Shown here: one piece after another, positions 3,734-54,931 of the stretch
How positions within the stretch are numbered: the stretch's first letter is position 1
Layout: the number at the start of each line of letters is the position of its first letter
From: Lactobacillaceae bacterium
GTDB lineage: Bacteria > Pseudomonadota > Alphaproteobacteria > RF32 > CAG-239
Assembly (NCBI GenBank): GCA_031271345.1
Contig: JAISVX010000003.1
Coordinates: 167,374 to 231,373 of the forward strand
DNA length: 64,000 bases
Direction: 5' to 3'
The notes under the pieces: generated by a model
Databases searched by the model: none
What the model saw: the letters and a program-made list of their open reading frames with translations, nothing else
Told to the model about the DNA's origin: nothing
Made by a program: the position numbers and the translations under genes

Positions 3734-3815
3734 TTTTAACACAAACGGATGTTATCTGTTGTTTTTTAAAAACCTTTACTTATACTTTAGTAAAGGTTTT
3801 TTATAGGATTAAATT

Positions 3816-25825: not shown

Positions 25826-28800
25826 CTAAAATTTGTATTCAACACCGGCTTTAATTTCATAAGAACCGTCCCTCTCAATAATTTTACCCGCTTCGGTAAA
25901 CAGGTTAAGAGATTTGAAGTAATAATCTAATCTGCCTGATATTAGACCTCTGGATTTATCGCTTTCATAGCCCTTCATGTTATAATAGCCCGGCATGCCG
26001 AACATTGTCGCGTTTGAATTGCCGTAAGTATCGCCAAATTCTTGATAGAAAGTGCCGCCAATACGAACTTTTACAGAATTAAAATCGTCAATCTCAAAAG
26101 TTTTCTTCGCATATAAACCAAGCCCGCCTTCAACAGACAAGCTGTTGGAAGATTTAACGGTCAACTGCTGCTTTTCTTTGGTTTTTGTTTGGTATACGCC
26201 CAGAACATTAAACTCTGCCGTTGGTTCAAGCGTGAAGAAACCTAAATCAATGTCTTTTCTTACTTCGTTGGTAACTCCGTAGTAATAATTTTTTGTATCC
26301 GCTTTATAAATATTGCCGGAAACAACTCTGCGGTAATCGCCCCATCCGAGACCAACTCTTGGCATAGATACAAAAGCGATTGTATCTGTTTGATATTTTA
26401 ACGGCGCCAATATGTGGACTAAAGTGTCGTCTCTTTTCGAAGAATTGTCATATTCGCTGTTTAATTGGGTTATTGTGAAACCCGCGCCATAACTGAAATT
26501 GTTGTTATATCTCTTTTGAACCAATCCATAAACAGAATGCGCGTCTTCTTCATAACCCTCAACCGCTCCAGACGCTTCCTGGTCTTTTTGTATGAAGTCA
26601 TAGCCCATCATCGCAACAACTTCGCGAGGGTCGTTATTTGCAAATACGCTGTTGTTAACCTGACGGTTTAAGCTCTTAACAGCTTCAAGATTCTGTCTTG
26701 CAAAACTTGGGAAGAAGTCTAAGCCAAGAAAGTTGTTCACCGCTTTTGTCAAACCGTTTTGATTGTTTGCATTTTTTACTGCATTAAACAGAGTTAACGC
26801 ATTTTGCGCTTTTTTGCTCTCAGTCTCTCCTGACGCGTTATACAAGTCGTAGGCATTATTTAAGTATTTAGCCAGATATTTGTCGGAAACAACTTCGTCA
26901 AACTCTTTCATAGTCATTACAACATCTTTGTTTCCGTCTCTGTTTTCTACCAGTTCCGCGTTGAACATGTAAGAATTTGAAAGCAGTTCTAATTCTGAGC
27001 TGTCGCCGATAAACGCGTTTTCGCTGACAAAAGATTTGTTAAAGCTGTCCGTTGTAATATTAGAGCCGGCATAAACTATGCCTGATATTTCTGGAGCTTC
27101 GTATTTTCCGTCTTTCTCAACAACAATTTTTCCGCCTTTCAAAGTCCAGTCATTAAAGTTAATCGCTGTTGAAGATATGGTTATGCCGCCGCTTCCGGTA
27201 ACAAACTCTGCGTTGTCGCCAATAGAAATATAAGAGGATGCGTTACAATCGTCATCGCTGCAGCTGTTAGTTCCGATTTTTATTGTGCCGTCATTATAAA
27301 CATAAGATGTGTCTGTTGTGGTTCCTACCGCATAGATACCGTTGCCGCTGCCGGTTATATTGATAATACCAGTCGCGGCATTATACACTAATGCGCCGTT
27401 TAAGGCAATTATGCCGGCGCTGGCGGTGTTATTGGATGTTATATTAATAGTGCCTCTATTTACGGCTTTTGAATCTGCGCCGGTAGCATACATGCCATAA
27501 GCTTTTACGGTGTTAGTCGTACTGGAAATGTTTATTGTCGCTCCAACATCGTTTACAATTGCCGCGCCTCCGGTTGTAAACATGCCTATTAGAGAAGTAT
27601 TTGCGGTAGTGCCGCTTAAGGAAATTGTTCCTCTGTTATATGCCTTGCTGTCCGTTCCGGTAACCGCCATTCCATAAGTATCAGCGGCTGCGGTTGTTAC
27701 GGTTATTTTACCATTAGCCATATTTATCAGTTCCGCGCCGTCAACGCCATACATGCCGTATCCGCCCAGCATTCCAATTGAACCGCTGTTTACCGCCTGC
27801 GTGCCTTCGCCTTCCACATACATTCCAGAGCCGGACTGGGCGAGTTTTATAACGCCGCTGCTTAAGTTTGTAATTTTTGCGCCGTCAATAGCGACCATAC
27901 CATAACCTAGCCCTGCGCTGATATTGATTTTTCCGGCGTTTTCTGCCGAGCTTTCTCCAGAGAAAGCAGTCATACCAGTAGCCACGGCATCAATCGTGCC
28001 GTTTGTACCGTTTGTGACCTTGCCGCCCAATGTAGCCTGCATGCCGGAGGTTGTTATATAATCGTCAACGCTTCCGCCGGATATGGTAATTTGACTGTTG
28101 TTTACAGCCGTGCCGCTATTTGAAGTCTGCATGCCTATACCCTGGGATATTTTAATGGTTCCGCCTGATGAATTGGTAACAGTGCCGCCGGATGTCATCA
28201 TTCCAAATGCGTCAACACCTCCGACATATTCTATTGTTCCAGAGTTAAAACCTTCACCGTTTTCAGTATATACGCCGATTGTTCCGTTTCCAGTCAGATT
28301 TATATTTCCCATATTATAGGCTTTACCTTCATTTGCCATCATTCCATAGCTGTCCGCGCCGACAACGTTTAGCTTTCCAGAACTGGTGTTCATTACAACG
28401 CCTGTAGCTCCAGATACGCCCAATCCGACAGAGTTGATTTTGTTAATGTTTATTGTGCCGTTGTTTACGCCTTGTCCGCCATTGGCAAAGACGCCAAAGC
28501 TTTCCTGATCGTTTAATTCAATGGTTCCGTCGTTTCTTGCCGTACCTTCGGTAGTATACATGCCGTAAGAAGCAGGATCCATATCGGAGCCGGTAATGCT
28601 GATTGTAACGCCGGCGGAGTTTACGGATGAACTTCCTGCATTTCCATCAATTCCTATGCCGCCGTTGCTAAGCATTATGCCGGCTTTGTTAAGAATTGTT
28701 CCAGAGCCGGTTGCGGTAATGCCGTATCCGAAGAAACCGCTTATGGTTATGGCTGCATTGTTGGTTATTGAGCCGTTTTCGGCAGAAATGCCCGTGCCAT

Positions 28801-31390
28801 AGTTATTGTTGATGTACGCGCTGTTTCCGACGAGATTTATTTGACCGTAGTTATCAATTGTTGTCGAGCCTTCCCCAACGATACCTGCATTTTGCGTTCC
28901 ATCTAAATTGGAGTTAATGATAATTTTTCCATAGTTATAGACTTTGCCGTTTTCAACATATATGCCAGTTCCGTCCTTGCCGTTAATGTTTATCTCTGCA
29001 TTGGCATTATTTGAGGCTGTGCCGTTATACACAATGCCTGATGACTGAATGCCGGAAGAGTTATCCGCGTCAACATCAATCAATTTAAGGTTTTCAATAG
29101 TTCCGCTATCGCTTAGTATGCCGACGCCGGTTCCTTCTATTTTTACTGTTCCGTTATTAACGATATTGCCTGTCATTGAAGATATTCCATCGCCGCCGCT
29201 TTTCATAGTGATGGTGCCGTCATTGGTGACTTTGCCGTTTTCTGACAAAATGCCGACTCCTTTAAGCTCAAAAGTGATTTTTCCCGAACTTAAGTTGTTT
29301 ACGTTGGCATTTTCAGAATATATACCATAAGACGGGGTAGCAGTTGGGTCAACGTTGTTTACATTGATATTTATCTGCCCGGTATTGTTCACTGTTCCGG
29401 CTACGGCATATAGTCCGTAGTTGTTTTTGCTGACTGACGAAATAATATTTTCAACATTAACGATGCCGTTGTTGTTTAGTGTTCCATATTCAATATATAT
29501 GCCGTAAGAGTCGTCCGCTTTATTAATGTTAACCGTGCCGCTGTTATTAACCGCTGTTCCGGCAGTGTCGTAGTTTGTGCTTCCTTCTCCGACAGGGTTT
29601 CTAATGACCGTAATTCCTTTGCCGCCGCTGTTCATGGTGATAACGCCGGTATTGTTTATTGTTCCGGCGTTTGAGTGAATGCCGGTGCCTGTAGAAGCAA
29701 AATTAATCTGGTTTGTATTGCTTATGCTTCCGCCATGAAGAGAAATCATTCCATATCCGCCGATACTATCCATATTGATAGAGCCGGTATTGGTTAATGT
29801 CGGTTTGCGCACATCAAATTCAGAGTTTGTACCGTTTCCGCGAATGGCAATCATGCCGTATCCTTCGGTGCCGCCTTTAACGCTGATTGCACCTTGGTTA
29901 AGCAAAGTTCCTCCGTGAACTGACAGCATGCCTGCATGAGAACCTGTAAAATCTGCGTCGTCATTTGATTCGACCTCAACATTTACGGTCCCGGTAGAGG
30001 TGTTGGTGGCCGTAGTGTTCGCGTCAGCCCTGATACCGATAATGCCGTTGTTTGCTTCGCGAATGTTTGTGACATAGCTTGATGAGCCGACGAGAGATGA
30101 TTTTACGCTTATTTGACCACTGTTGGTGATTTCAACATAACCGGCTCTGCTTAGAAGTTTTTTACCATTAGTGAAATCTTCTTCAATGTAGCTTCCCATA
30201 CCAACCAGAGCGGTCGCATTAGAAGACGATGTTGAAGTGTTGCTCAAATCGATTACTCCCGTTACCCCGTTAGTAAGTTTTGTAGCGTAAGCTGGAGTTG
30301 GATTGTCTTCCTGGTTTATAATTCTTCCCTGCATGCCGACCAATGTGCCTGCCGTAGCGTTAGAGCTTATGGTTTTGATGTTTTTGTTGTTTAGTATTAA
30401 TCCGTTTGTGTCCGAATATATGCCGATAATTTGGTGTGTGTCAAAAGAACCTTCAAAGCTCATTAATATATCGCCGCCGTTTGTTGCCTGTCCGTTATCG
30501 CTGGCAATCATTCCCACAGTTCCGCTTGCGGCATTGATTTGGATTATATTGTTATTAAATGCTGTGGCTCCATTTCCCAAAGCTACCAAGCCTGCGGTAA
30601 CGTTTTTAAGGTTTATTGTTCCGTTATTCGTTAGGGAAGTGTTTTGGTATGCTTTAAATGCGACCTGAATATATTTTGCATATTCAAGAATGTTGCTGTT
30701 AAAATCCATCCAGGAAAGAAGGTATTTGCCATCCTCGAACATTCTGTCATTATCAAAAGTTAAACTTTCTGTATTTGTGTATGACGAGCCATTTTGAGCT
30801 TTTTTATATATTGCCTGGTATCCGGCTGGAGCATCATAAGGTTTTAATGTTCCGGCAAAATCTCCGAGGTTGTCGTTTGTAGCTTTGTATCCATGACCAC
30901 CACCGCCTCCGCCGCCTCCGCCACCGCCAGCGGCAAGGGCAACTCCCGCGCCGGCAAGCAATAATCCGCCGATAACCCAGGTTTTGGTAGAAATAACGAA
31001 CTCACCTTTGTCAAACCTTGTGTAAGCGGCTCTTGGCGTTTCTTCCAGCCCGACCACGCCGCTTGAGTTCATGAAAGAATTGTATTGTTGTCTTGGAATA
31101 TTTTGGGTACATCCGTGTTTTGGGTTGGAGCCTGCGGCTCTAAAAGCATTATATGCTGTTTTATTGTTTCTTTTTATGGCATAACATAAACCAGTGTCCC
31201 CGTTTCTGTCTACGGTATCAATATTCATTCCGCGCTGGACAGCCGCTCTCAATGCCCTTACGTTTCCAGAAGAAGCGTAGCCGTACATTTGTGAAAGATT
31301 TAGAGGAGGAATATTTGCATGACTTGCAGTACTGGTAAAATAGAAACACACTGCAGTAATTATTGAAATACTTTTACGAAAATTTCCCAT
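25826..31390 (-). CDS. Giant type Va autotransporter (1854 aa) with an ankyrin-like N-terminal module, a Gly11 tract, a long beta-helix passenger and a C-terminal beta-barrel
   Basis: N-terminal signal peptide. 1.5 ANK-like repeats (NGDTGLCYAIKRNNKTAYNAFRAAGSNP). A second hydrophobic segment then G11 (DNA 30896-30928). Hundreds of G-x-G/NxGTI beta-helix repeats. The C-terminal barrel ends ...IKAGVEYKF. Confidence 0.8.
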   Translation of the reverse strand: MGNFRKSISIITAVCFYFTSTASHANIPPLNLSQMYGYASSGNVRALRAAVQRGMNIDTVDRNGDTGLCYAIKRNNKTAYNAFRAAGSNPKHGCTQNIPRQQYNSFMNSSGVVGLEETPRAAYTRFDKGEFVISTKTWVIGGLLLAGAGVALAAGGGGGGGGGGGHGYKATNDNLGDFAGTLKPYDAPAGYQAIYKKAQNGSSYTNTESLTFDNDRMFEDGKYLLSWMDFNSNILEYAKYIQVAFKAYQNTSLTNNGTINLKNVTAGLVALGNGATAFNNNIIQINAASGTVGMIASDNGQATNGGDILMSFEGSFDTHQIIGIYSDTNGLILNNKNIKTISSNATAGTLVGMQGRIINQEDNPTPAYATKLTNGVTGVIDLSNTSTSSSNATALVGMGSYIEEDFTNGKKLLSRAGYVEITNSGQISVKSSLVGSSSYVTNIREANNGIIGIRADANTTATNTSTGTVNVEVESNDDADFTGSHAGMLSVHGGTLLNQGAISVKGGTEGYGMIAIRGNGTNSEFDVRKPTLTNTGSINMDSIGGYGMISLHGGSISNTNQINFASTGTGIHSNAGTINNTGVITMNSGGKGITVIRNPVGEGSTNYDTAGTAVNNSGTVNINKADDSYGIYIEYGTLNNNGIVNVENIISSVSKNNYGLYAVAGTVNNTGQININVNNVDPTATPSYGIYSENANVNNLSSGKITFELKGVGILSENGKVTNDGTITMKSGGDGISSMTGNIVNNGTVKIEGTGVGILSDSGTIENLKLIDVDADNSSGIQSSGIVYNGTASNNANAEININGKDGTGIYVENGKVYNYGKIIINSNLDGTQNAGIVGEGSTTIDNYGQINLVGNSAYINNNYGTGISAENGSITNNAAITISGFFGYGITATGSGTILNKAGIMLSNGGIGIDGNAGSSSVNSAGVTISITGSDMDPASYGMYTTEGTARNDGTIELNDQESFGVFANGGQGVNNGTININKINSVGLGVSGATGVVMNTSSGKLNVVGADSYGMMANEGKAYNMGNINLTGNGTIGVYTENGEGFNSGTIEYVGGVDAFGMMTSGGTVTNSSGGTIKISQGIGMQTSNSGTAVNNSQITISGGSVDDYITTSGMQATLGGKVTNGTNGTIDAVATGMTAFSGESSAENAGKINISAGLGYGMVAIDGAKITNLSSGVIKLAQSGSGMYVEGEGTQAVNSGSIGMLGGYGMYGVDGAELINMANGKITVTTAAADTYGMAVTGTDSKAYNRGTISLSGTTANTSLIGMFTTGGAAIVNDVGATINISSTTNTVKAYGMYATGADSKAVNRGTINITSNNTASAGIIALNGALVYNAATGIINITGSGNGIYAVGTTTDTSYVYNDGTIKIGTNSCSDDDCNASSYISIGDNAEFVTGSGGITISSTAINFNDWTLKGGKIVVEKDGKYEAPEISGIVYAGSNITTDSFNKSFVSENAFIGDSSELELLSNSYMFNAELVENRDGNKDVVMTMKEFDEVVSDKYLAKYLNNAYDLYNASGETESKKAQNALTLFNAVKNANNQNGLTKAVNNFLGLDFFPSFARQNLEAVKSLNRQVNNSVFANNDPREVVAMMGYDFIQKDQEASGAVEGYEEDAHSVYGLVQKRYNNNFSYGAGFTITQLNSEYDNSSKRDDTLVHILAPLKYQTDTIAFVSMPRVGLGWGDYRRVVSGNIYKADTKNYYYGVTNEVRKDIDLGFFTLEPTAEFNVLGVYQTKTKEKQQLTVKSSNSLSVEGGLGLYAKKTFEIDDFNSVKVRIGGTFYQEFGDTYGNSNATMFGMPGYYNMKGYESDKSRGLISGRLDYYFKSLNLFTEAGKIIERDGSYEIKAGVEYKF

Positions 31391-34899: not shown

Positions 34900-34934
34900 G
34901 AAGCGACCAAAACCGTTTTGGTTTTGGTCGCTTC
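34900..34934. terminator. Rho-independent terminator downstream of 33805-34881
   Basis: Perfect 15-bp stem GAAGCGACCAAAACC / GGTTTTGGTCGCTTC with loop GTTTT. Confidence 0.65.
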
Positions 34935-35018
34935 TGGTAAAAGTCCGCCCGATTTGAACCTTACGTTCGGTCCCTTATACGGGGCAGGCGAATTGCCGAA
35001 ATTCGGCAGGCGTTGTTT

Positions 35019-35560
35019 TTCATGATCGTTTTTTTTGCGGGGTGGAAGCGGCTTGGTCGTATTCGCGCTTCATCTTTCGTCCCCGGATTCTACATTTTCG
35101 CCGATTTTTTATAGGATAAGCTATATTTTATAACTTTTTTGGACCTACGGTTGACTAGGGCATTGCTCTAATCTGGGCGAGATTTTTTCGTTTCATGCGA
35201 TCGGTTTTTGCGGGGATGGCGCGCGGTTTTTTGTTTCGCGGTCCATATCGTTCCCCAGTTCTACACTATTTGCCGCATCTGGCGTTGGAATTTTTTGGGC
35301 GATAAAAGCTTAGGTGTCTGCTCTTATCTTGACGAAATTTTTCTTCTTCATAAGACGGGATTTTTTCCAGTTTTTTTTGCTTTTTCCCGGGACGGCATCA
35401 TTTGGGTGCGTCTCGGATAGGAGCGAAGTTTTTGTTTTTCATCATAAATCGTTTTTGTCAGTTGGGGAATCTTGTTTGCTGTTTCTTGGTAGCAATTACG
35501 GTCCCCTGATTTTCAAAACGTTTTTCTGCGTCATATACGGGCGGTTTTTATGTTATTTGT
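35019..35560. repeat. ORF-free region with 3-4 degenerate direct repeats (~95-170 nt units beginning TTTCATG...GCGGGG...TCCCCGGATTCTACA)
   Basis: Unit 1 (35019-35113) and unit 2 (35191-35285) align at roughly 75% identity by eye. Weaker copies start near 35345 and 35436. GC is visibly higher than the flanks. Only spurious ORFs under 85 aa are present. Confidence 0.45.
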
Positions 35561-35720
35561 AAATATAAATCTAAAATTGTAACTTGTTAAGAATATATAT
35601 AACAATATTTTTAGACAAAAGCAAGTGGTTTTTTGAAAATTTTTCAAAAAAAATTGTTTATCATTAAAAATCAATATGTTATTGTCAATATTTATTCGAC
35701 TCATTCTGGCTTATAAACAA

Positions 35721-36261: not shown

Positions 36262-36427
36262 TGTTATTTGGTTTTGAAATTAGACAATAGTAATCCGCAA
36301 GGATTTTTGAATTAAATATAAAAGATTATGTAAAGGTTAGCACCAGGGGAAAATAAAATCAAGGCTTAAAAAAACAAAAAAGCAGATAACCCATTATTTA
36401 TCTGCTTTTGCGTAAATTAGAGTTTTA

Positions 36428-37036
36428 TTATAAATCGGCGACAACCCTAATGGTTATAATTTCGTCAGGATACTGGACCTGACCGTTTGGACCTTTGCCT
36501 TTTGTAATCATATCGACATATTCCATTCCCGATGTAACTTCGCCCCATATTGTATATTGCCCGTCGAGCCATTCGCAATTGTTAAAGCATATAAAAAACT
36601 GGCTGTCGGCAGAGTGTGGGTGCATGGCTCTCGCCATTGAAACCGTTCCTCTTTTATGCGGAAGATTAGAAAATTCCGCGGGGATCTTCTGACCGCTTCC
36701 GCCTGTTCCTGTTCCAAGAGGACATCCTGTCTGCGCCATAAAACCTTCGATAACTCTGTGAAATTTTAATCCGTCATAGAATTTGCTTCTGACCAGTTCT
36801 TTTATTCTGGCAACATGATTAGGCGCCGCGTCTGCAAACATTTCTATAACAACGTCGCCGTCTTTAAGTTTCAGCACCAAAGAGTTCTCGGGGTCTTTGA
36901 CCTTATATGAATGTTTAATCTTTTTTGCGCGTGCTTCGCTTACGCCGATTTGTTTTGTTTCGGATTTTGGTATTGATGTGGTTTTTTTTGCCGCTAATTT
37001 TTTTGGTTCATCCGCTTTTTTAATTTCTTTTGTCAT
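36428..37036 (-). CDS. ppiB: Cyclophilin-type peptidyl-prolyl cis-trans isomerase with a K-rich N-terminal extension
   Basis: Cyclophilin motifs FHRVIEGFMAQTGCP and GQYTIWGEVTSGMEYVD. Confidence 0.85.
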   Translation of the reverse strand: MTKEIKKADEPKKLAAKKTTSIPKSETKQIGVSEARAKKIKHSYKVKDPENSLVLKLKDGDVVIEMFADAAPNHVARIKELVRSKFYDGLKFHRVIEGFMAQTGCPLGTGTGGSGQKIPAEFSNLPHKRGTVSMARAMHPHSADSQFFICFNNCEWLDGQYTIWGEVTSGMEYVDMITKGKGPNGQVQYPDEIITIRVVADL

Positions 37037-37097: not shown

Positions 37098-38060
37098 TTA
37101 AAATTTCCCACCATTTAATACGAAATCGACCCGCTCTTTAGCATTTAGGTTTTTGGGATAGTGTTTGTCAATGTTCTTAAGAACTTTTTGCAATCCGATG
37201 CCGTTGGCGATTTGTATCGCCAGTCCAGGTCTTGCGTTAAGCTCTAACATCATCGGACCTTTGTCTTTATCAAGCACAATATCCGCGCCGATATATCCAA
37301 GCCCTGTCATGTCATACGCTTTGGAGCCAATATCAAGGTGTTCTCTCCATAGGGGGACAGCTAAATCCATAAGGTTTGCGTTTGTATCTGGATGGATGGT
37401 AACGGGCTTGTCTTTTAATACGGCGTTTAAAGCTTTTCCCGTGCTTATATCCAATCCGACGCCGACCGCTCCCTGGTGGAGGTTTGCTCTTCCTCCAGAC
37501 ATTTTTGTCGCCAACCTCATCATTGTCATCGCGGGAAAGCCCTTATAAACAATAATCCTGACATCGGGAACTCCCTGATAGCTGAAATTATTGAAAATGC
37601 TGCTGAAATGAACCAGTTCTTCAATCACGACATTATCATATCTGCCGCCCAAACTGTATAATCCGCTCAAAATATTGGAAATATGCTGGTACACTTCATT
37701 ATAGGTTATTTTTCTTCCCGAAGCAGTGGTGAAAATTTCTTTATTGTGTTCCGTAACAACCAGAATGCCGCGTCCGCCGCTTCCCTGAGCCGGTTTTATA
37801 ACAAACTCTTTATAATCTCCTATAATATCCAGAATATTTTTTGCTTCGTGCTGATATTCGATTATTCCGATGAGCTTAGGAGTGTTTATTTCATGTTCTT
37901 GAGCCAGCGTTTTTGTAATAACCTTATTGTCAACCAGAGGATATAAGCTTCTTTTGTTGCATTTGGATATAAATTTATAATTGCGGGCATTCATGCCGAG
38001 AACTCCATTTTCGTGAAGTTCTTTCGGGGTCGCAAAAATTTTGGAAAGCAGCTTAAACAT
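37098..38060 (-). CDS. RimK-like ATP-grasp ligase (alpha-L-glutamate-ligase-related)
   Basis: ATP-grasp motifs (FVIKPAQGSGGRGI; MLELNARPGLAIQ). Sits in an operon with the 7TM-transglutaminase-like and retropepsin-like genes. Confidence 0.75.
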   Translation of the reverse strand: MFKLLSKIFATPKELHENGVLGMNARNYKFISKCNKRSLYPLVDNKVITKTLAQEHEINTPKLIGIIEYQHEAKNILDIIGDYKEFVIKPAQGSGGRGILVVTEHNKEIFTTASGRKITYNEVYQHISNILSGLYSLGGRYDNVVIEELVHFSSIFNNFSYQGVPDVRIIVYKGFPAMTMMRLATKMSGGRANLHQGAVGVGLDISTGKALNAVLKDKPVTIHPDTNANLMDLAVPLWREHLDIGSKAYDMTGLGYIGADIVLDKDKGPMMLELNARPGLAIQIANGIGLQKVLKNIDKHYPKNLNAKERVDFVLNGGKF

Positions 38061-38063
38061 CTG

Positions 38064-39599
38064 TTATCCCTTAACCAAAGGAGCAAATCTGGTCAGCTCC
38101 AGCAGTCTGTATCCCGTGTAAGTGCCGAGAAGCATAACAAGGAACAGGATTACGTAGTTTATTTCGCCAAAAGCGTAAGTTATGTGTCTTATATATTCAT
38201 TGCTCACAACAAGATATGTCATAACGGCGGTTATTAGGCTGAAGACAATCTCTCTGGTCGCGTTTGCCGCGCCGTCTTCTTCCCAGGTGATTGAAGCTCT
38301 CTCAATAATCCATGCCATAATGATTATCGGGAAAAACACGGCAGATAAACCTATGTTTAAGCTGAACTTTTGACCGATGATAGTCATTGCCTGCATGATT
38401 ATTATGACAAAAATAACCACGGCGGATATTCTGGGAACCAGCAGAAGGTTAAGTTTTGACAGCAGTCCGCGCAGGAGCATGCCTATAATAAGGATGATTG
38501 AAAACGAAATCATGCCGCTTACAAAGCCTGTCTGCACCAGTGACATTGCAATCAGCATAGGGGTAAATGTTCCCATTGTTTTCAAGCCGATTACGTTGCG
38601 GATTATCACAATAATTAATATTGCGAGAGGGAACACGCTTAACCATTTGATAATGTTTTGTTCGTTGAGCGGCAGGCTGAAAATTGAAGAGTCAAAATAT
38701 GCCTGCTGGTCGGCAATTCTTGCTCTGTGGGAGGCTAAGTCAAAGTTTGAGCTTAAAGACTTTAATACGGAAAACTGGATTGAAGAATCTTCTCCGCCCT
38801 CAATATCGACCAAGCCTTTATCACCTCTTTGAAAAATGACAAAATCTCCGGGAATGCCGCGCTTTCCCGTTCCGATATTGTATACTCTCCATTTGTTTCT
38901 AATATATGCTTCGACCATCAAATCCGCTTCGAGAGATTTTTTTCCTTCTTCAAGCTTTACGCCCTTAACCACGCGTGACGAAACCTTTTCTATTGCCAAA
39001 AGCTCCCTTATTGCCGCGGCGATTTCTTCCTGTGATATTTTAAACGGCAGATAAGAAGATACTAACGGGTGGGCAGGCTTTTGATTAAATATATGTATAA
39101 GCTTTTCAGGCAGATCGCCTTCCATTTCCTTTGTCAGTTCGATAATTTCTTTCGCAATTGCTATTTGCCTCTCGTCAAGCTGTGGTATTTTAGGAGCCTG
39201 AGGTTTAATGTCTTTTGTCAGACCTTTTGTATCTTCATTATCAAACAGCATAACCCGATAATAGATGTTTTGTTCGGAGTTTCTGGGGTTAGATGTTAAT
39301 ATAAGCTTTTTTTGTCCATTTTTTTCGGTCTTAACAACATACCCGGTTGCAATAATGCTGTCGTCAAGGACTTTAAAATTATCAGAGTCTTCTGGAGTCG
39401 TTATTGAAACTTTTATTTTTTCGCCGGTAGGCATAAAGGATATATGTTCTTCAATTGACCAAACGCCTGTGCTTTGCTTTGGCTTGAAGCTAAAGCCCCA
39501 GTATTTTACTTTATAGTACGTGCTTGTTGCCGCAACAATTATTGAGATGAGCAGACATACAAATAAAACAAATCTGACAGACTTTATTTTTTTTATCAT
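38064..39599 (-). CDS. Inactive-transglutaminase-like domain fused to a C-terminal 7TM module (7TM_transglut-like)
   Basis: N-terminal TM anchor, ~280-aa extracytoplasmic domain, then 7 predicted TM helices at the C-terminus. 4-nt gap to the RimK-like gene. Confidence 0.55.
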   Translation of the reverse strand: MIKKIKSVRFVLFVCLLISIIVAATSTYYKVKYWGFSFKPKQSTGVWSIEEHISFMPTGEKIKVSITTPEDSDNFKVLDDSIIATGYVVKTEKNGQKKLILTSNPRNSEQNIYYRVMLFDNEDTKGLTKDIKPQAPKIPQLDERQIAIAKEIIELTKEMEGDLPEKLIHIFNQKPAHPLVSSYLPFKISQEEIAAAIRELLAIEKVSSRVVKGVKLEEGKKSLEADLMVEAYIRNKWRVYNIGTGKRGIPGDFVIFQRGDKGLVDIEGGEDSSIQFSVLKSLSSNFDLASHRARIADQQAYFDSSIFSLPLNEQNIIKWLSVFPLAILIIVIIRNVIGLKTMGTFTPMLIAMSLVQTGFVSGMISFSIILIIGMLLRGLLSKLNLLLVPRISAVVIFVIIIMQAMTIIGQKFSLNIGLSAVFFPIIIMAWIIERASITWEEDGAANATREIVFSLITAVMTYLVVSNEYIRHITYAFGEINYVILFLVMLLGTYTGYRLLELTRFAPLVKG

Positions 39600-39614
39600 T
39601 ATGAACCTTCTTTA

Positions 39615-40169
39615 CTATTTTAGTGTGTTTTTTAAGGCTGTATCAACGACAGCGCGGCCGGTTAAAAGATTTCTTCCGACAAGGATTTGATAGTTAAACT
39701 TATCTCTTTGGGCTAAAGAAACTTTTTCTTTTATCACCATGTCTCCAATCTTTATATCCATAACAACAAAAATTCTTTCCTCGCTGTCATCAATTCTTTT
39801 AATTTTTTTAATTTCTTCAATCTTTTTCTCAAAAGTATGTTTTTCCCCGGTTTCTCTGTTTATCACGCCGAAAGAAACCCATTTTTTGCCGTCTCTTTCA
39901 AATATTTTTTGGCTGTAAACGTCAATTGAAGTAGTTTGAGCGCCGGTGTCAATTCTGGAAATAAACGGAGATTTTATCGGAGGAAGATAAATAGGTTCAA
40001 TTTCGCCGATTATTCCTAAAGGCTGCTTTACCTCATGCTTAACTTCAATTCCGGGAACAATTCTTGGCACGTCCTGCGTCGCTGTATCAGGGTGCGAACA
40101 GGAAGAAACAAAAAGCATTGATATAATCAACAATATTTTATTCAGTTTTAGTACATGATTTTTATTCAT
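39615..40169 (-). CDS. Retropepsin-like aspartic protease lipoprotein (RimK-associated 'putative ATP-dependent zinc protease' family)
   Basis: Lipobox FVSSC. Aspartic-protease active-site motif RIDTGAQTTSID (D-T-G-A). Confidence 0.6.
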   Translation of the reverse strand: MNKNHVLKLNKILLIISMLFVSSCSHPDTATQDVPRIVPGIEVKHEVKQPLGIIGEIEPIYLPPIKSPFISRIDTGAQTTSIDVYSQKIFERDGKKWVSFGVINRETGEKHTFEKKIEEIKKIKRIDDSEERIFVVMDIKIGDMVIKEKVSLAQRDKFNYQILVGRNLLTGRAVVDTALKNTLK

Positions 40170-40353
40170 TTTTACGGTCTCGACCTTTTGATTAGTTAAG
40201 GATTTTCAGAACAGTAACTATTTAGAGTTAATATTAAAGAAAAGTAAAGATAAATTTTGATTATATGCAAAAAAATAGTTTGAATGTCCATAAACTTTAT
40301 GCTATAATCTGTACAAATAAACGACAAATAGACAAATCCATAGGGCAAGAGTT

Positions 40354-41790
40354 ATGACACGAGAGCAGATAGAGAACAAAGATAAGATTGCGCGAATAAA
40401 GAGAATCAAAGAAAAAGCCAGAAAAAAGATGACTGCGTTAAAGAAAAAGAAGAAGAATATATTCGCGCGGTTGAAAGATAATGCCGCGGGCTACCTGCGA
40501 AGAGGCGGCTTATATGTCATGACGTTTTTTATCAGTGCTGGTCCGGCATCGGCGGCTCCCAGAAATTCTTTTGGTGACGATGACAAGGCAAAAGCGAACG
40601 CAATTGAAATGACAAGCGGTGCGGTAAAAGAGATTGCCATGAAAAAATCTATAAATTATGAGGAAACCGTTTCTGTTAATATTGATGAAATGAAAAGAGA
40701 GATTATAAATAACCACATTGCAGGCACAATAGAATATTCATACAATGCTTATCGCTCGGTTTTAGGGAACAGAACCCGAGTTCTTTCAAGGGAATACAGA
40801 GATACATATAATACGGAAAGAGGAAAGTATTATTATTGCTTAAGGTCCCATACTAAGGCAATTGAAAATTATAGAAATGATAACGGCTTAACTTATCTTG
40901 ATGATATTTTTCCTGATATAACAGTTGGAAGAGGGCGCGGAAAGATGAATCTGGCCGGATGCACCCAATTTATCGACCAGATGAGAACGACGAAATATCT
41001 TGATGATTTTCAGTGTAAGACGACCACTATAAACAGCGGAAGAACAGTATACTCGCATCCGATTAAGTTGGAGATAGACGACATAAAAGTCGGAGATATT
41101 ATTTTTCTTAAGTCTTCAAGGAACAGCGTGTCAGGTCTACACGCAGTTAAAGCCATCGGTCATGAGTATGACGCGGAAGGAAAGATAACGTCTGCAATAA
41201 TGCTTAGCTTAAACAGCGAAAGCTTTATCCGTTTTGGGACAGAGGGCGAGTTTTCGACCGTAATTATTCCAGATTATAAAAAAGAGAAGTTTAACAATGT
41301 GAGTTCGGCAACTGGAATTATTGCTAATATGTCGGATATTATGATGAAAAATCTCGATGAAGAAATAGCGTCTAATTATACGGAAAATATGTCTGAAGAA
41401 GAGAAACGCGATGTTGCCGTCGAAATTCTTGAAAAATATGAAGAGGGCATTGAAGAAGGCAATCATATAGCGGAGCTTTATAATATGGAAGGTCCTGAAT
41501 TGATAGCTGGACTTACTCATCAGGAATCTCCAGAAAGAATAGTCGCGGCGGGAACCAATATTTCCGATGATATATTGCGTACCGCCAGCGTAAAGCCTGA
41601 TGTCGAGCTTGTCAGAAAAAAGCTGAACGCCAATACAACCGCTTCTTCTAGTCAGGTTGAGGTATCGCAGAATGTTTATCATGTCGACGGCAGAAGAGAG
41701 GAGGAAAATTCTACTTCTGTTCAAAATGAAGAATTAAATAACCGCAGCACAAAAGATGTTAGAAGAACTAGGTATAATACGAGAACATAG
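40354..41790 (+). CDS. Hypothetical membrane-anchored protein; possible papain-fold (CHAP/NlpC-P60-like) Cys-His domain
   Basis: Basic N-terminus then hydrophobic anchor LYVMTFFISAGPASAA. Candidate catalytic Cys (NLAGCTQFIDQM) and His (GDIIFLKSS...GLHAVKAIG) lie ~60 aa apart. Tentative. Confidence 0.35.
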   Translation: MTREQIENKDKIARIKRIKEKARKKMTALKKKKKNIFARLKDNAAGYLRRGGLYVMTFFISAGPASAAPRNSFGDDDKAKANAIEMTSGAVKEIAMKKSINYEETVSVNIDEMKREIINNHIAGTIEYSYNAYRSVLGNRTRVLSREYRDTYNTERGKYYYCLRSHTKAIENYRNDNGLTYLDDIFPDITVGRGRGKMNLAGCTQFIDQMRTTKYLDDFQCKTTTINSGRTVYSHPIKLEIDDIKVGDIIFLKSSRNSVSGLHAVKAIGHEYDAEGKITSAIMLSLNSESFIRFGTEGEFSTVIIPDYKKEKFNNVSSATGIIANMSDIMMKNLDEEIASNYTENMSEEEKRDVAVEILEKYEEGIEEGNHIAELYNMEGPELIAGLTHQESPERIVAAGTNISDDILRTASVKPDVELVRKKLNANTTASSSQVEVSQNVYHVDGRREEENSTSVQNEELNNRSTKDVRRTRYNTRT

Positions 41791-41844: not shown

Positions 41845-42531
41845 TTATTTTTTCTCATCTGGATCACGGAGAACATATCCGCGACCCCAAACAGTCTCAA
41901 TATAATTTTTGCCGTTAGACGCTTTTTCAAGTTTTTTGCGAAGCTTGCAAATAAACACGTCAATAATTTTTAGCTCCGGCTCGTCAATGCCGCCGTATAG
42001 GTGGTTTAAGAACTGGTCTTTGTTCAGTGTAGAGCCTTTTCTTAATGATAGCAGCTCCATAATGCCGTATTCTTTGCCTGTCAGGTGGATTGCCTTATTG
42101 CTGACATTAACGCTTTGCGTATCCAGATTAACCTCAATATCGCCGGTTTTTATAACAGAATTTGAATGTCCTTTAGAACGGCGGACGATAGCATGAATTC
42201 TTGCCAGCAGTTCTGCTCTGTCAAAAGGCTTTGTCAAATAGTCGTCGGCTCCGAACCCAAGACCTTTTACTTTTTTATCAGGCTCCGATAGTCCGGATAA
42301 AATTAATACAGGCGTATTAACTTTTGCGGATCTTAAGTTTTTAAGAACTTCATATCCGTTCATGTCTGGCAGCATTAAGTCAAGGATAATGATGTCATAA
42401 TCGTATAATTTGCCTATCTCTAAGCCGTCTTCGCCCAAGTCGGTCGTATCAACTATCATACCTTCTTTTTTGAGCATAGTTTCAATGCTTTGAGATACTG
42501 CGTAGTCGTCTTCAACAAGTAGTACTCGCAT
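41845..42531 (-). CDS. ctrA: Cell-cycle master response regulator CtrA (OmpR family)
   Basis: Near-collinear with Caulobacter CtrA: MRVLLVEDD..., [60 protein letters not shown]. Confidence 0.9.
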
Positions 42532-45756: not shown

Positions 45757-46788
45757 TCATTCTATTGGTTTTATATATTTTTTATGAGTTTCCTCAGATG
45801 TTGGCAGGTAAGTATAAATAGACTCATTTGCAAAGCTGTATCTGCAGTTATCTTCTTTATATCTATAGAAAAATGCAGCCATCCGCTTTAATCCTTTAAA
45901 GCTTAATTCGTAAAATGAAACGATGTCTTTTTTATCAAGGTCAATACCTACTTGTTTTATATTATATAATGACACAATCCCCGCGTTCTTTTGCAGCAGG
46001 ACTGGACAGGTTTCTTTGCCGGTTTTTTCCGCAAATTCCTGACAATTATAAATAATATCATACTCCATGCATAACACAATATTTCCATTGTCTATCAAAT
46101 CCTTGGTTGTTTTCTTATCATCGGTATGTCCGCAGTTTTTAAACAAATAAACTATATTAGACTTTGCTTCCGCCAAAATCGCGGAATGGTACGAATCTAT
46201 GGGGTCATCAAAATAAAGATAGCCGGACGGATAAGAATCTACAACTTCTACATTTGGATATAATTCGTTATCTGCGCCTTTATGAAAAAACTTTTTTGGC
46301 AGATAAATCGCATTATATTCGGGAGCGGGAGTATCCATTTCACAGGTTTTAAAAAAATCTTGGGTGCTTGTATAATCAATTAAACATGCAAGAACGGGAA
46401 TTCCCAAAATTGTCAAGAAAGGAATTGCCAAATATTTTTTTGCCTTCCAAAAAGTGATTGCGGCAATCATCAGCAATGGAAGTATAAAAAGAGGACGGAA
46501 CATTGCTTCCGGGTTGCTGTTTGAAACAAGTTTTAGATACGGAATATAAAGAAATACGATAGATAGTGTTCCAAGCAAAATATATTTTGTTTTCCGCTCT
46601 GTTTTATGATGTATTAAAAGTCTTGCGGTCGCCGCCATTGCGAAAGCAATATAGCATATAAGTATAAACACCTTCTCCATGTTCATATACATGTTTAGTG
46701 TCGACAAATAAAGCAGCGATAAACCGAGCATAAACATAAATATGTTTAAGATTTTATCACTACCTTTTTCTTTGTTTGTTTCAGCCAT
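45757..46788 (-). CDS. Hypothetical polytopic membrane protein with a C-terminal soluble domain (343 aa from MAETNKEK)
   Basis: The ORF track extends to 47091. The ATG at 46788 is preferred because AAAGGGGG lies 4 nt upstream. ~6 TM helices. Confidence 0.45.
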   Translation of the reverse strand: MAETNKEKGSDKILNIFMFMLGLSLLYLSTLNMYMNMEKVFILICYIAFAMAATARLLIHHKTERKTKYILLGTLSIVFLYIPYLKLVSNSNPEAMFRPLFILPLLMIAAITFWKAKKYLAIPFLTILGIPVLACLIDYTSTQDFFKTCEMDTPAPEYNAIYLPKKFFHKGADNELYPNVEVVDSYPSGYLYFDDPIDSYHSAILAEAKSNIVYLFKNCGHTDDKKTTKDLIDNGNIVLCMEYDIIYNCQEFAEKTGKETCPVLLQKNAGIVSLYNIKQVGIDLDKKDIVSFYELSFKGLKRMAAFFYRYKEDNCRYSFANESIYTYLPTSEETHKKYIKPIE

Positions 46789-47210
46789 ATTTCCCCCTTT
46801 GAATATCATAAATAATCTATAGCCAATCTTGTATAAAATCAAGGCTGTCTTTACAAACAAAATATAGTGTTGACGCCGGAAAATATCAGGGTAATATATT
46901 TTTATGTAACTAACGGAGGTTTTTATGAAAAAAATACTTATAGTCTGCTTTATAATTTTATTGTCTGGCTGTACTAAAGCCGGTCCTTTTGTAACTAATA
47001 TTTCTTCGGACGGCGCTGGCGGTTTAAATATAGAAAAATGCAACGTACATTTGAACGCTTTTATGGGTACCGTATCAAACGATAACTGCATTTCTTCTTA
47101 TATAAAAGTTAAATAAGATGATTTTTTATTTTATATAGCCGTAAAAGTTGACAAAAAAGTTGAAAAGGTGTATTATTAAACATACGCAATTATCTTTTGG
47201 GATAAAATAA

Positions 47211-48383
47211 ATGGAAGAAACTGAAAACAAAAAAGAAAAAGAAGTAAAGTCGGATAATTCTTTTGAAGAAGCAAAAGAAAAGAAAGCCGCAAGAACAGGC
47301 AAAATCATGGGTTTCTTTGCAGGTTTGACGGCATTTGGCGCCATGGCGGCTAATGCCGGAAATCTTCCAAATATTGAAGAAACCGCGGATAAAGAGCTTA
47401 ATGATCCAAAAAACAAAAAAGAAGTGGTTGTTGAAAATAAAAAAGGCGATGTCGTATATTCAAGATCAGATACGTCGGATAGATATTACGTCAACCCGGA
47501 GGACTATGCTCAGGCGGCGGCAGCATTAAAAGCAGAGGCGTCTTCTCGAGAATATAAATCCCCTGAAGAATTTAAAAAGCTAAGCAAGGAAGAAAAAGCC
47601 GACCATCTTAGAAGCGGAACAAGCGATGGTTTGAACTTTGTGACAACAAAGATGGAAGCTCATGAAGAGGCAAATCAGGAAAAATATACTTTCTTGGAAA
47701 AATGGTATAAAAAGGGAAAAGAAAAGAAGAGTTTGGAAACAGACTACAGTAGAACCGATGTATCCCCAAGCTTAAGCGAGATTTTTGATAAAGGCAAATA
47801 TAACAGGGATCATGAGCAGGTTAGCGTTGACCAAAGAGAGGTCAATCTGCGCGGCAGCGGCATACCAAAAGACAACACCAAGACGGTATTTAGGCAGATT
47901 ACGCCGCATGAATCATCCGACAGACAGCGTCCTCTTAACAAAGTGGACGAGTTCGTTCAGAGAGACGAGTTCCGTTCCGACGGTACGCTCAAGAGGGAAA
48001 TAGGCGGCGATACGCATGCTTCCATTGATAGAAATGGCGGTTATAAAGTTGAAACCTCAAGTTCTGTAAAAGATTTTAAGAGGGATGGAGAGACTGTAAG
48101 AAAAACTACGGAAGAACGAGTTACGGAGACTCCGACAAGCCGTGAGAGTGTAAAAACAGTTTCAAAGGCTAGAAAAGACAAAACCAAGGTCAGAGAGCTT
48201 GTCGAAACGCTTAGAGGAACAAGAAGAACCAAAGGCACTTATGATGCGGAAGGAAAGCCGATTGGAAAAGTGAAAACAAAAACCAAAGACTTTGATGACA
48301 AGCAGGTTGAGCAGAATATTCAAGAGCAGCAGGAAAAAGGTCTGTCTCCTGCAATGAAGCACTTCATGGAGGTTAGCCGTTAG
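47211..48383 (+). CDS. Highly charged low-complexity (K/E/R/D/T-rich) protein with one hydrophobic segment
   Basis: Clean 390-aa ORF with a terminator at 48408-48434 downstream. No family recognised. Confidence 0.4.
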   Translation: MEETENKKEKEVKSDNSFEEAKEKKAARTGKIMGFFAGLTAFGAMAANAGNLPNIEETADKELNDPKNKKEVVVENKKGDVVYSRSDTSDRYYVNPEDYAQAAAALKAEASSREYKSPEEFKKLSKEEKADHLRSGTSDGLNFVTTKMEAHEEANQEKYTFLEKWYKKGKEKKSLETDYSRTDVSPSLSEIFDKGKYNRDHEQVSVDQREVNLRGSGIPKDNTKTVFRQITPHESSDRQRPLNKVDEFVQRDEFRSDGTLKREIGGDTHASIDRNGGYKVETSSSVKDFKRDGETVRKTTEERVTETPTSRESVKTVSKARKDKTKVRELVETLRGTRRTKGTYDAEGKPIGKVKTKTKDFDDKQVEQNIQEQQEKGLSPAMKHFMEVSR

Positions 48384-53686: not shown

Positions 53687-54931
53687 GTGAAGATGGGAAA
53701 AAAACTAAATTTTTTATTGATGTGCGGACTTGGTTTGGCTGCTGCAAGCACAGCTAAAGCAAGCGGTTATCAATTAAACGAATATTCTGTAACAAACTTG
53801 GGTCGTGCGTTTGCCGGTGTCGGCGTGGTTGGTGACGACTACTCTGCCATAGCGTTCAACCCTGCTGGAATGACCTTAAAAGGCTCAGGCGGTCAGCTTG
53901 GCGTCAGCGTTGTCGAGATGAACTCTGATACCAGAGGAAAACTTAACCTCAATGGCGGCGGTGTAATTGGCGACAGTCCAAAAGGAAGATTAAGATTATA
54001 TAAAGTTCTTCCTCACGGTTTTGGTCAATACAAAATCAATGACAAGGCTTATGTCGGTTTAGGTGTATATTCTCCTTTTGGTCTCGCATCAAAATATAAC
54101 GCTTATTGGTTTGGCGCAAACCATGGTATAAGAACTGAGCTTGAAGTTGTTGACGTGGCTGCAAGTTTTGCGTATAAATTTACTAACCAATGGTCAGCCG
54201 GCGGCGCTGTTATTTACAGATATGTTCACGGCAACCTAATCAATACTCCGTCTCCTCTTTTTCCTAAATCAAGAAATCAGATGGATTTGGACGGCTGGGG
54301 CTGGGCATATAACTTTGGCGTTATGTATGAGCCTGTTCAGGATACTCGTTTTGGCGTGGCATACAGGCTGAACTCAGGTCATACCGTTAAAGGAAAGCAT
54401 AAAATTAAAAAACTTAATCCTGCGGTAAATGGCGCATATCCTGCTGAAACAACTATGACTCTTCCTAACCAGCTGACATTATCCGCATACCATAAGCTGA
54501 ACTCTAAGTTTGGATTGTCTGGTACTGCGCGCTGGACTAAATGGGATGTGTTTGATGATTTCGTTCTGCACTCACAGTATAATGGCGGTACAACAGAGAT
54601 TATACCTGAAAACTGGAAAAATGTCTGGACATTCTCTGCCGGCGTGGATTACTACTACAGCCCGGAATGGACATTTAGATTCGGAGTTTCGACAGATCCT
54701 ACACCGATTAAAAGCCCTGAATTCCGCACAGCCAGAATTCCTGACGCGGACAGAACTTGGACAACGCTTGGCGTTTCATACAAATATAACAATATGACAT
54801 TTGATGTCGGTTATGCTCACTTGTTTATGAAAACTGCAGAAATCAGAAACCGTAATGCTGTTACAACGTTGAATGCGAAAGCTGTCGGTTTGAGCAATAT
54901 GTATGCAATCCAGTTCCAATATGATTTTTAA
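53687..54931 (+). CDS. fadL: FadL/OmpP1-family outer-membrane transporter for long-chain fatty acids and other hydrophobic compounds
   Basis: Signal peptide. N-terminal hatch motif (NLGRAFAGVG). C-terminal ...FQYDF ends in Phe. Confidence 0.8.
   Translation: MKMGKKLNFLLMCGLGLAAASTAKASGYQLNEYSVTNLGRAFAGVGVVGDDYSAIAFNPAGMTLKGSGGQLGVSVVEMNSDTRGKLNLNGGGVIGDSPKGRLRLYKVLPHGFGQYKINDKAYVGLGVYSPFGLASKYNAYWFGANHGIRTELEVVDVAASFAYKFTNQWSAGGAVIYRYVHGNLINTPSPLFPKSRNQMDLDGWGWAYNFGVMYEPVQDTRFGVAYRLNSGHTVKGKHKIKKLNPAVNGAYPAETTMTLPNQLTLSAYHKLNSKFGLSGTARWTKWDVFDDFVLHSQYNGGTTEIIPENWKNVWTFSAGVDYYYSPEWTFRFGVSTDPTPIKSPEFRTARIPDADRTWTTLGVSYKYNNMTFDVGYAHLFMKTAEIRNRNAVTTLNAKAVGLSNMYAIQFQYDF

Follow-up and report, generated by a model that had tools for sequence, protein, structure and literature searches.

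What do three closely spaced genes on the minus strand of a bacterial contig encode, and what might their products do together? The genes occupy positions 37098-40169 of a stretch of 64,000 nucleotides (contig JAISVX010000003.1 of assembly GCA_031271345.1, positions 167,374 to 231,373), which is referred to here, in its full length, as the window. Linkage of such genes was reportedly first predicted in the 2009 Iyer/Aravind amidoligase paper, and an earlier note on the window took the trio for a prediction of comparative genomics with no experimentally defined substrate. The system has since left the stage of prediction. The rloA-rloB-rloC operon of Pseudomonas aeruginosa (PA1768-PA1767-PA1766; PA14_41690/41710/41730) has the same architecture and has been characterised, and RloA was found to cut runs of at least 8 alpha-linked Glu residues in vitro (Lormand et al., mBio 2025, PMC12239564); what stands of the earlier statement is its part on the physiological substrate, which that study did not find. 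We conclude that the window locus is very probably an rlo-type operon, the alphaproteobacterial counterpart of the Pseudomonas one. This identification is based on family matches of the three products, an end-to-end alignment of the membrane protein with RloB, matches of the protease to the structures 9g58, 9g59 and 2pma, a protease-membrane protein-ligase order kept in 80/80 relatives, and the presence of the same trio in Aeromonas, Legionella and Lentisphaerota.

The trio and its conservation

The open reading frames (ORFs) delimit three consecutive minus-strand genes exactly where the earlier note had placed them (Table 1). With stop codons counted in the genes, the rloA-like and rloB-like genes are separated by 15 nt (39600-39614), as it had measured, and the rloB-like and rloC-like genes by 3 nt (38061-38063) rather than by its 4, a trivial error. 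Good Shine-Dalgarno sequences precede rloB (GAAGG) and rloC (AAGGGA), and that of rloA is only weak. Each of the family models that had been proposed for checking (TIGR02291, 7TM_transglut and Transglut_i_TM, and PF05618) was matched. No second copy of rloA, rloB or rloC was found elsewhere within the window.

Relatives were defined as 80 loci with a homologue of the 511-aa membrane protein at 50-64% identity, one genome being scanned per species. All of them come from metagenome-assembled genomes (MAGs) of uncultured gut, rumen or caecal Alphaproteobacteria. Order and strand of the three genes are shared by 80/80 loci, except for two in which a contig end removes one gene, and the adjacency of the genes is therefore far beyond chance. 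Spacers of 3-36 nt (one of 150) separate rloA from rloB in these loci, and rloB and rloC are separated by -17 to +13 nt.

The same trio occurs in Aeromonas caviae, on a plasmid of Legionella adelaidensis and in the complete Lentisphaerota genome CP071032, where RloA is a lipoprotein. The closest RloB relatives outside the alphaproteobacterial clade belong to Lentisphaerota/Victivallales (38-40% identity), including Lentisphaerota bacterium ZTH (CP119760/CP071032, 3438-6498). Identity to the window copy of RloB is 39% for Lentisphaerota, 34% for Aeromonas and 30% for Legionella; for RloA it is 42% for Lentisphaerota and 29-35% for Aeromonas/Legionella, and for RloC it is 47-51% for Aeromonas/Legionella. 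As far as sequence comparison goes, the closeness of Lentisphaerota hints at transfer among gut anaerobes. A homologue search with RloC returned close relatives only and added nothing on distribution. The RloB family is moderately large and varies very little in length (about 505-520 aa). A search of 1.84 billion cluster representatives gave 1574 matches at E <= 1e-3, of which 336 reached E <= 1e-30. The claim that the trio recurs across bacteria and is conserved together in relatives is thus borne out, and the locus shows that the rlo module extends beyond Gammaproteobacteria and indeed beyond Proteobacteria.

On plasmid 5 of Legionella adelaidensis, the RloA-family gene of the trio (3429-3887) is annotated as 'RimK/LysX family protein' and has no signal peptide as annotated (MANNEKIIYGF...). 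It may encode a cytoplasmic protease in an rloB-containing operon, or its start codon may be mis-called.

Properties of the three products

The RloA-like protein matches PF05618 (3e-26; 92 bits against a cutoff of 27), and a sequence search of the Protein Data Bank (PDB) with it returned 9g59, 9g58 and 2pma. Structures have been solved for P. fluorescens RloA and P. aeruginosa RloA2, Legionella 2pma has been named RloA-like, and RloA proteins are described as secreted, dimeric and retropepsin-like, with a positively charged substrate channel (PMC12239564). The N-terminus of the window protein, MNKNHVLKLNKILLIISMLFVSSC, displays by pattern a basic n-region, a hydrophobic core and then a lipobox (residues 1-24). 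The first reading of this protein as a lipoprotein with a D-T-G-A motif was correct, since the lipobox VSSC and D74-A77 are both present. The lipobox Cys column is at least 95% conserved in orthologues, and a Cys after G/A/S behind a hydrophobic stretch was found in 79/80 scanned sequences; the exception, Aeromonas, is a start-codon artefact, and the Aeromonas RloA has a lipobox of its own. DTG is present in 80/80 orthologues. Because each chain carries a single D-T-G-A, the active RloA-like enzyme would have to be a homodimer, a property of the retropepsin family that is also seen in the Pseudomonas crystal structures (PMC12239564).

Basic residues near the active site are conserved as well. 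The segment R72-I-D-T-G-A is at least 97% conserved in 80 sequences, apart from I73 (at least 85%), and R132 and R155 are conserved to the same extent of at least 97%. R72 lies two residues ahead of D74. The alignment with 9g58, 9g59 and 2pma places R132 at the Arg of 'RPV' and R155 at that of 'DR/NR'. The distance from R132 to R155, 23 residues, equals that from R114 to R137 in P. aeruginosa RloA. From this correspondence in numbering, we infer that R72, R132 and R155 are the likely counterparts of K46, R114 and R137. Mutation of R114 and R137 in P. aeruginosa RloA abolishes poly-Glu cleavage and complementation, and K46 likewise coordinates poly-Glu (PMC12239564).

The RloB-like protein matches PF14402 7TM_transglut (4e-81) and PF14400 Transglut_i_TM (4e-22). 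Its residues 11-510 align end to end with residues 7-507 of the 508 in the NCBIfam model 'osmotic stress tolerance membrane protein RloB'. Hydropathy and an AlphaFold model (predicted local distance difference test, pLDDT, 76.8) give a transmembrane (TM) helix at 7-25, a hydrophilic domain of 289 residues (about 26-314), a C-terminal helical bundle (about 315-495) and a conserved tail; in the model, a mixed alpha/beta domain covers about 35-300 and the bundle reaches residue about 495. The layout proposed earlier, an N-terminal anchor, a large extracytoplasmic domain and a C-terminal 7-TM bundle, is consistent with the two Pfam matches and with one TM helix followed by a multi-helix bundle. 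Because the sole Cys, C15, sits in TM1, the transglutaminase-fold domain cannot, on its sequence, be a Cys-His-Asp enzyme. Most of the invariant residues fall within R334-P347, N384-I391, E433-G443 and G492-P507. With the N-terminus predicted to be inside by the positive-inside rule, these segments would form cytoplasmic loops and the C-terminal tail, as one would expect for a surface binding a cytoplasmic partner or substrate. A PDB sequence search with this protein gave rhodopsin matches only, and these were non-significant (E ~0.06) and were set aside.

The RloC-like protein, in which no TM segment was found by hydropathy, matches PF14397 ATPgrasp_ST at 1.5e-91 and scores 431 bits with TIGR02291 'alpha-L-glutamate ligase-like', whose cutoff is 314. 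Its AlphaFold (AF2) model is of high score (pLDDT 89.3; predicted template-modelling score, pTM, 0.87), and the closest solved structures to it are RimK ('poly-alpha-L-glutamate peptide synthetase'), ArgX/LysX and cyanophycin synthetase, at E ~1e-11 and a template-modelling score of ~0.5. D260...E273-x-N275 aligns with GVDIL ... VMEVNASPGL of RimK; this motif is invariant in 51 sequences and at least 97% conserved in 80. K89-PAQGSGGRG and GGRANLHQGA, which contain the K-GSGG and RxNLHxG motifs, are invariant too.

By contrast, models of RimK itself were not reached (TIGR00768, 45 bits against a cutoff of 143; NF007764, 18 against 331). Residues 57-102 of the RloC-like protein align with 111-154 of RimK. 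Only ~43 residues, predicted to be helical, lie upstream of its ATP-grasp 'DK' motif, where RimK has an alpha/beta N-domain of ~97 residues, and its central region is ~64 residues longer. On these scores and alignments, the RloC-like protein is not a RimK orthologue and belongs to a separate subfamily. Thus, of the earlier term 'RimK-type ATP-grasp ligase', the ATP-grasp/TIGR02291 part stands and the RimK-type part goes too far.

A model of production, export and trimming and its alternatives

How might these proteins act together? RloC, a cytoplasmic enzyme of the RimK/LysX structural clade, would use ATP to build an alpha-linked Glu chain, either free or on an acceptor. RloB would recruit RloC and export or display the product at the periplasmic face, the site of its catalytically dead transglutaminase-fold domain. 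RloA, as a lipid-anchored homodimer, would cut the poly-Glu product and so keep an envelope polyanion in check. In the absence of the protease, the product of RloB and RloC would accumulate, and envelope or osmotic homeostasis would be damaged.

A poly-Glu mechanism is supported by the proximity of the RloC model to RimK, ArgX/LysX and cyanophycin synthetase, by the retention of the ATP-grasp motifs and of D74, R72, R132 and R155 in RloA, and by Pseudomonas genetics. P. aeruginosa lacking all three RloA paralogues does not grow in hypo-osmotic medium and has biofilm, ampicillin-sensitivity and cell-shape defects, and these defects are rescued by deletion of rloB or rloC (PMC12239564). Loss of the protease is toxic, according to these genetics, only where RloB and RloC are present. 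Insertions in PA1766-1768 are suppressors of exopolysaccharide overproduction in flagellar mutants (PMC7314104), and insertions in the RloB homologue of Shewanella vesiculosa lead to hypervesiculation (PMC12096838). The trio had been suggested to play an envelope or host-interface role; the envelope part agrees with the Pseudomonas and Shewanella phenotypes, and no supporting evidence was found for the host-interface part. Taken jointly, an rlo-type operon working by production, export and trimming is what we consider somewhat probable. The specific chemistry of that mechanism is tentative, falling a little short of an even chance.

Several observations weigh against this reading. No product is known for RloC or for any other TIGR02291 member, and the physiological substrate of RloA was not found in Pseudomonas, in whose genome the authors found no gene for a periplasmic poly-Glu protein (PMC12239564). 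Because the RloC-like protein is without the N-terminal domain of RimK/LysX, it could act on another acceptor than they do, and even on another amino acid. The RloB-like protein scores 262 bits against a cutoff of 900 with the RloB model NF052267, and the best NCBIfam match of the RloA-like protein, RloA3, reaches 80 bits against a cutoff of 210, followed by RloA2, RloA and RimB. These NCBIfam models (NF052267; NF052262-4) are of the narrow 'exception' or 'equivalog' types and were presumably built around Pseudomonas proteins; missing their cutoffs argues against close orthology and not against family membership. Co-transcription of the genes, too, is deduced only from their spacing and from terminator scans.

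The protease also departs from its characterised homologues. A disulfide has been described as conserved in periplasmic RloAs (PMC12239564), and no Cys pair for it exists in the window protein, whose mature part has no Cys; the Cys position of 'DICMG'/'VCLGG' in 9g58/9g59 is occupied by Lys140. Likewise, 73/79 orthologues of the clade have no Cys past the lipobox. The Lentisphaerota RloA has none in its mature region and the Aeromonas RloA has one, in the N-terminal linker, so that lipoprotein-type RloAs without a disulfide pair are found in these lineages as well. Its absence here and in the 73/79 orthologues argues that the disulfide is dispensable. Moreover, the numbering offset to P. aeruginosa RloA falls from 26 residues at D48/D74 to 18 at R114/R132, which implies that the flap is probably ~8 residues shorter than in Pseudomonas.

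Could the ligase act on something other than a Glu chain? RloC may ligate an amino acid, Glu or another, to an acceptor other than a protein, for example a precursor of peptidoglycan, a polysaccharide or a lipid-linked intermediate. RloB would then flip or present the modified precursor, and RloA would remove or edit, in the periplasm, the peptide that had been added. PF14397, which gives RloC its best Pfam match, is indeed a 'sugar-transfer associated ATP-grasp' family, and the RimK N-domain that serves a protein or peptide acceptor is missing. In addition, peptidoglycan homeostasis has been raised by the authors of the rloABC study (PMC12239564), and the Shewanella rloB mutant hypervesiculates (PMC12096838). 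Against such a role, RloA cuts in vitro only where 8 or more Glu follow one another, the arginines with which it binds poly-Glu are required in vivo and are conserved in the window copy, and none of the 80 loci has a glycosyltransferase or peptidoglycan gene linked to the trio. We regard modification of an envelope precursor as unlikely.

A signalling module is very unlikely in our estimate. In it, RloB would be a 7TM receptor: a periplasmic peptide ligand, made or destroyed by RloA, would bind to its dead transglutaminase domain, and RloB would control the activity of RloC at the cytoplasmic face. In favour of such a module, multi-TM bundles with a fused inactive enzyme domain frequently act as sensors, the RloB bundle has no clear transporter homologue, and the strong conservation of predicted cytoplasmic loops and C-terminal tail fits a partner-binding surface. 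Nevertheless, deletions of rloB and rloC suppress alike in Pseudomonas, a result for which a linear production pathway accounts no less well. Nor does the trio have a linked regulator or output domain: CtrA is near it in the window only, and a weak response-regulator match (31-32% identity) appears in the flanks of 5/80 relatives. Finally, cytoplasmic addition and trimming of Glu on ribosomal protein S6, in the manner of RimK and RimB, has next to no probability, for although ligase and protease are distant homologues of RimK and RimB and RloA cuts poly-glutamylated RpsF in vitro (PMC12239564), the localisation signals contradict it (the protease has a lipoprotein export signal and a membrane-protein gene lies between the protease and ligase genes), the models of RimK failed, as did that of RimB (NF052261, 50 bits against a cutoff of 200), and rimB has no genetic interaction with rloA in Pseudomonas (PMC12239564).

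Host, cyclophilin gene and surroundings

Proteins that are 100% identical to those of the window carry the label 'Lactobacillaceae bacterium' at NCBI, and a 50%-identical relative is labelled 'Lactobacillales'. Yet a CtrA equivalog (404 bits; cutoff, 350) and a FadL-like outer-membrane protein are among the products of the window genes, and 80/80 close relatives of the locus are Alphaproteobacteria. On these grounds, the Lactobacillaceae label is almost certainly a taxonomic error of the deposited MAG, and the host is a gut-type, free-living member of Alphaproteobacteria. A bifunctional acetaldehyde-CoA/alcohol dehydrogenase, AdhE, is also encoded (1369 bits), which together with the gut origin of the relatives suggests a fermentative gut commensal. 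The genome had been called AT-rich and host-associated: AT-rich is correct, with about 39% GC, and obligate host association was not upheld.

A gene for a cyclophilin-type peptidyl-prolyl isomerase (PPIase), ppi, begins 61 nt past rloC with an AGGAGG of its own. No terminator-like site was found between rloC and ppi, the hairpin past ppi being the sole minus-strand one in 40169-36378. The gene adjoins rloC on the same strand in 67/80 relatives; a terminator-like hairpin stands between the two genes in 1/59 loci and after ppi in 35/67. Clustering of flanking genes in the 80 loci shows it to be by far the most conserved neighbour of the trio, and no further conserved partner was found beyond it. 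Hence ppi is probably the fourth gene of a transcription unit rloA-rloB-rloC-ppi (40169 to 36428) that would end at the hairpin. A functional link of the cyclophilin to the trio is speculation. Its N-terminal extension of ~50 residues shows little conservation and is rich in Lys; among 68 sequences, the median is 16 K+R in 53 residues. No PPIase match was found at the gammaproteobacterial loci checked, and no gene is called after rloC at the Lentisphaerota locus.

One could imagine a four-gene rlo unit with the cyclophilin as a working partner, whose Lys-rich tail, complementary to a polyanion, would for example bind or chaperone the poly-Glu product or RloC, and with a single lipid-anchored, disulfide-free RloA as the only protease. 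Such a unit would represent the system in minimal form and without redundancy, and gut Lentisphaerota would share it by horizontal transfer. We think it quite unlikely; if it is true, the product of RloC should be easier to identify in such a minimal four-gene system than in Pseudomonas.

Two other candidates were rejected. The cyclophilin as an acceptor for RloC, as S6 is for RimK, was set aside, as the protein ends in ...VVADL and not in Glu. An OprB-family porin, the next commonest neighbour (38/80 loci), lies ~1.2 kb off with an opposite-strand gene between and was treated as plain synteny.

The intergenic region upstream of rloA is the presumed promoter region of the operon. No minus-strand sigma-70-like promoter was found in 40170-40353, and no CtrA box (TTAA-N7-TTAA) there or within 8 kb of the operon; the window has 3 against 8 expected. 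On the other side of this region lies a divergent gene for a 478-aa protein with a very basic N-terminus and without a family match. This protein is not kept beside the trio, weak similarity being seen in 6/80 loci only. PADLOC defence models gave no match at E <= 1e-3 for RloA, RloB, RloC, the cyclophilin or the protein of the upstream gene. An Rfam scan of the window returned two tRNAs and nothing else. Elsewhere in the window, there are an ORF-poor stretch of ~0.7 kb with degenerate direct repeats, in which no Rfam match and no convincing ORF was found, and three ORFs without family matches (Table 1).

Table 1. Features of the locus and its surroundings, in window coordinates
Feature	Position	Strand	Description	Basis
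rloA-like gene	39615-40169	minus	184-aa lipoprotein, retropepsin-like aspartic peptidase; residues 1-24 signal and lipobox, 25-50 linker, 51-184 protease domain	ORF list and PF05618
Lipobox of RloA-like protein	40098-40109	minus	V21-S22-S23-C24; C24 predicted lipidated residue, +2 residue Ser	Read from sequence
Catalytic motif of RloA-like protein	39939-39950	minus	D74-T75-G76-A77	Read from sequence
rloB-like gene	38064-39599	minus	511-aa inner-membrane protein	PF14402 and PF14400
rloC-like gene	37098-38060	minus	320-aa predicted cytoplasmic ATP-grasp ligase, 'alpha-L-glutamate ligase-like' subfamily	
ATP-grasp Mg/ATP motif of RloC-like protein	37236-37283	minus	D260 (GADIVLD) ... E273-L-N275 (LELNARPGL)	
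ppi	36428-37036	minus	202-aa cyclophilin-type PPIase	PF00160, 7e-44
Terminator-like hairpin	36378-36409	minus	12-bp stem then T-run, directly past the cyclophilin stop codon	
Divergent intergenic region	40170-40353		184 nt, AT-rich, between rloA and the plus-strand 478-aa gene	
478-aa upstream gene	40354-41790	plus	Very basic N-terminus	No family match
CtrA equivalog	41845-42531			404 bits
FadL-like outer-membrane protein	53687-54931			
AdhE	21787-24459	minus	Bifunctional acetaldehyde-CoA/alcohol dehydrogenase	1369 bits
ORF-poor stretch	34900-35570		Degenerate direct repeats ~155-183 nt apart (e.g. 35168/35323/35506; 35031/35204/35291)	
1854-aa ORF	25826-31390	minus		No Pfam match at E <= 1e-4
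ORF	45757-47091	minus		No Pfam or NCBIfam match
ORF	47211-48383	plus		No Pfam or NCBIfam match

Comparison with known systems

By analogy only, PgsBCA/CapBCA with PgdS/CapD resembles the proposed system in that a membrane machine makes and exports an anionic Glu polymer and an extracytoplasmic hydrolase acts on it. The families are unrelated (PgsB is Mur-ligase-like and not ATP-grasp) and the linkage is gamma, whereas RloA cuts alpha-linked Glu encoded within proteins. The LysX/ArgX-LysW ligases share the ATP-grasp structural clade of RloC, of which they are the second-best structural neighbours, and join Glu or alpha-aminoadipate to the C-terminal Glu of a carrier. Unlike the window system, they need the small carrier LysW, for which no linked gene is present in the window, and they are biosynthetic and not envelope-related.

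RimK-RimB(-RimA) is closer in its logic. In it, too, an ATP-grasp enzyme builds alpha-poly-Glu and a retropepsin-like protease trims the chain, and RimK is the best structural neighbour of RloC. Its components are all cytoplasmic, however, with no membrane protein among them and with a known acceptor, the C-terminus of RpsF. In the window system, the protease is exported, and RloC lacks the RimK N-terminal domain and has the ~64 extra central residues.

The closest comparison is with rloABC of P. aeruginosa. Both loci have the same three families in the same gene order with tight spacing: an exported DTGA protease with conserved basic residues at the active site, a protein with a TM helix, a periplasmic inactive transglutaminase domain and a 7TM bundle, and a cytoplasmic TIGR02291 ligase. 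They differ in that the window host is an uncultured gut alphaproteobacterium and not a gammaproteobacterium, and in that its RloA is a lipoprotein, in contrast to the soluble P. aeruginosa RloA with its type I signal. The window RloA also lacks the disulfide pair, has the ~8-residue shorter flap and carries Arg in place of K46. In addition, a cyclophilin gene lies downstream, and no RloA2 or RloA3 paralogue is present within the window. New relative to the literature are the occurrence of the module outside Gammaproteobacteria, that is, in a large gut alphaproteobacterial clade (at every sampled locus with an RloB homologue) and in Lentisphaerota, as well as a lipoprotein RloA free of the disulfide, an RloC without the N-domain, and an appended cyclophilin gene.

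The rlo system of P. aeruginosa has a bearing on osmotic tolerance, on cell shape and biofilm formation, and on how sensitive the cells are to antibiotics against the cell wall. A division into conserved and dispensable features narrows the hypotheses on mechanism and does not by itself give the RloC product. Cumulatively, the comparison of the two loci marks the following: 1) the DTGA motif, the three arginines, the ATP-grasp motifs, and the cytoplasmic loops and C-terminal tail of RloB as conserved; and 2) the disulfide, the length of the flap and the choice between a soluble and a lipid-anchored protease as dispensable.

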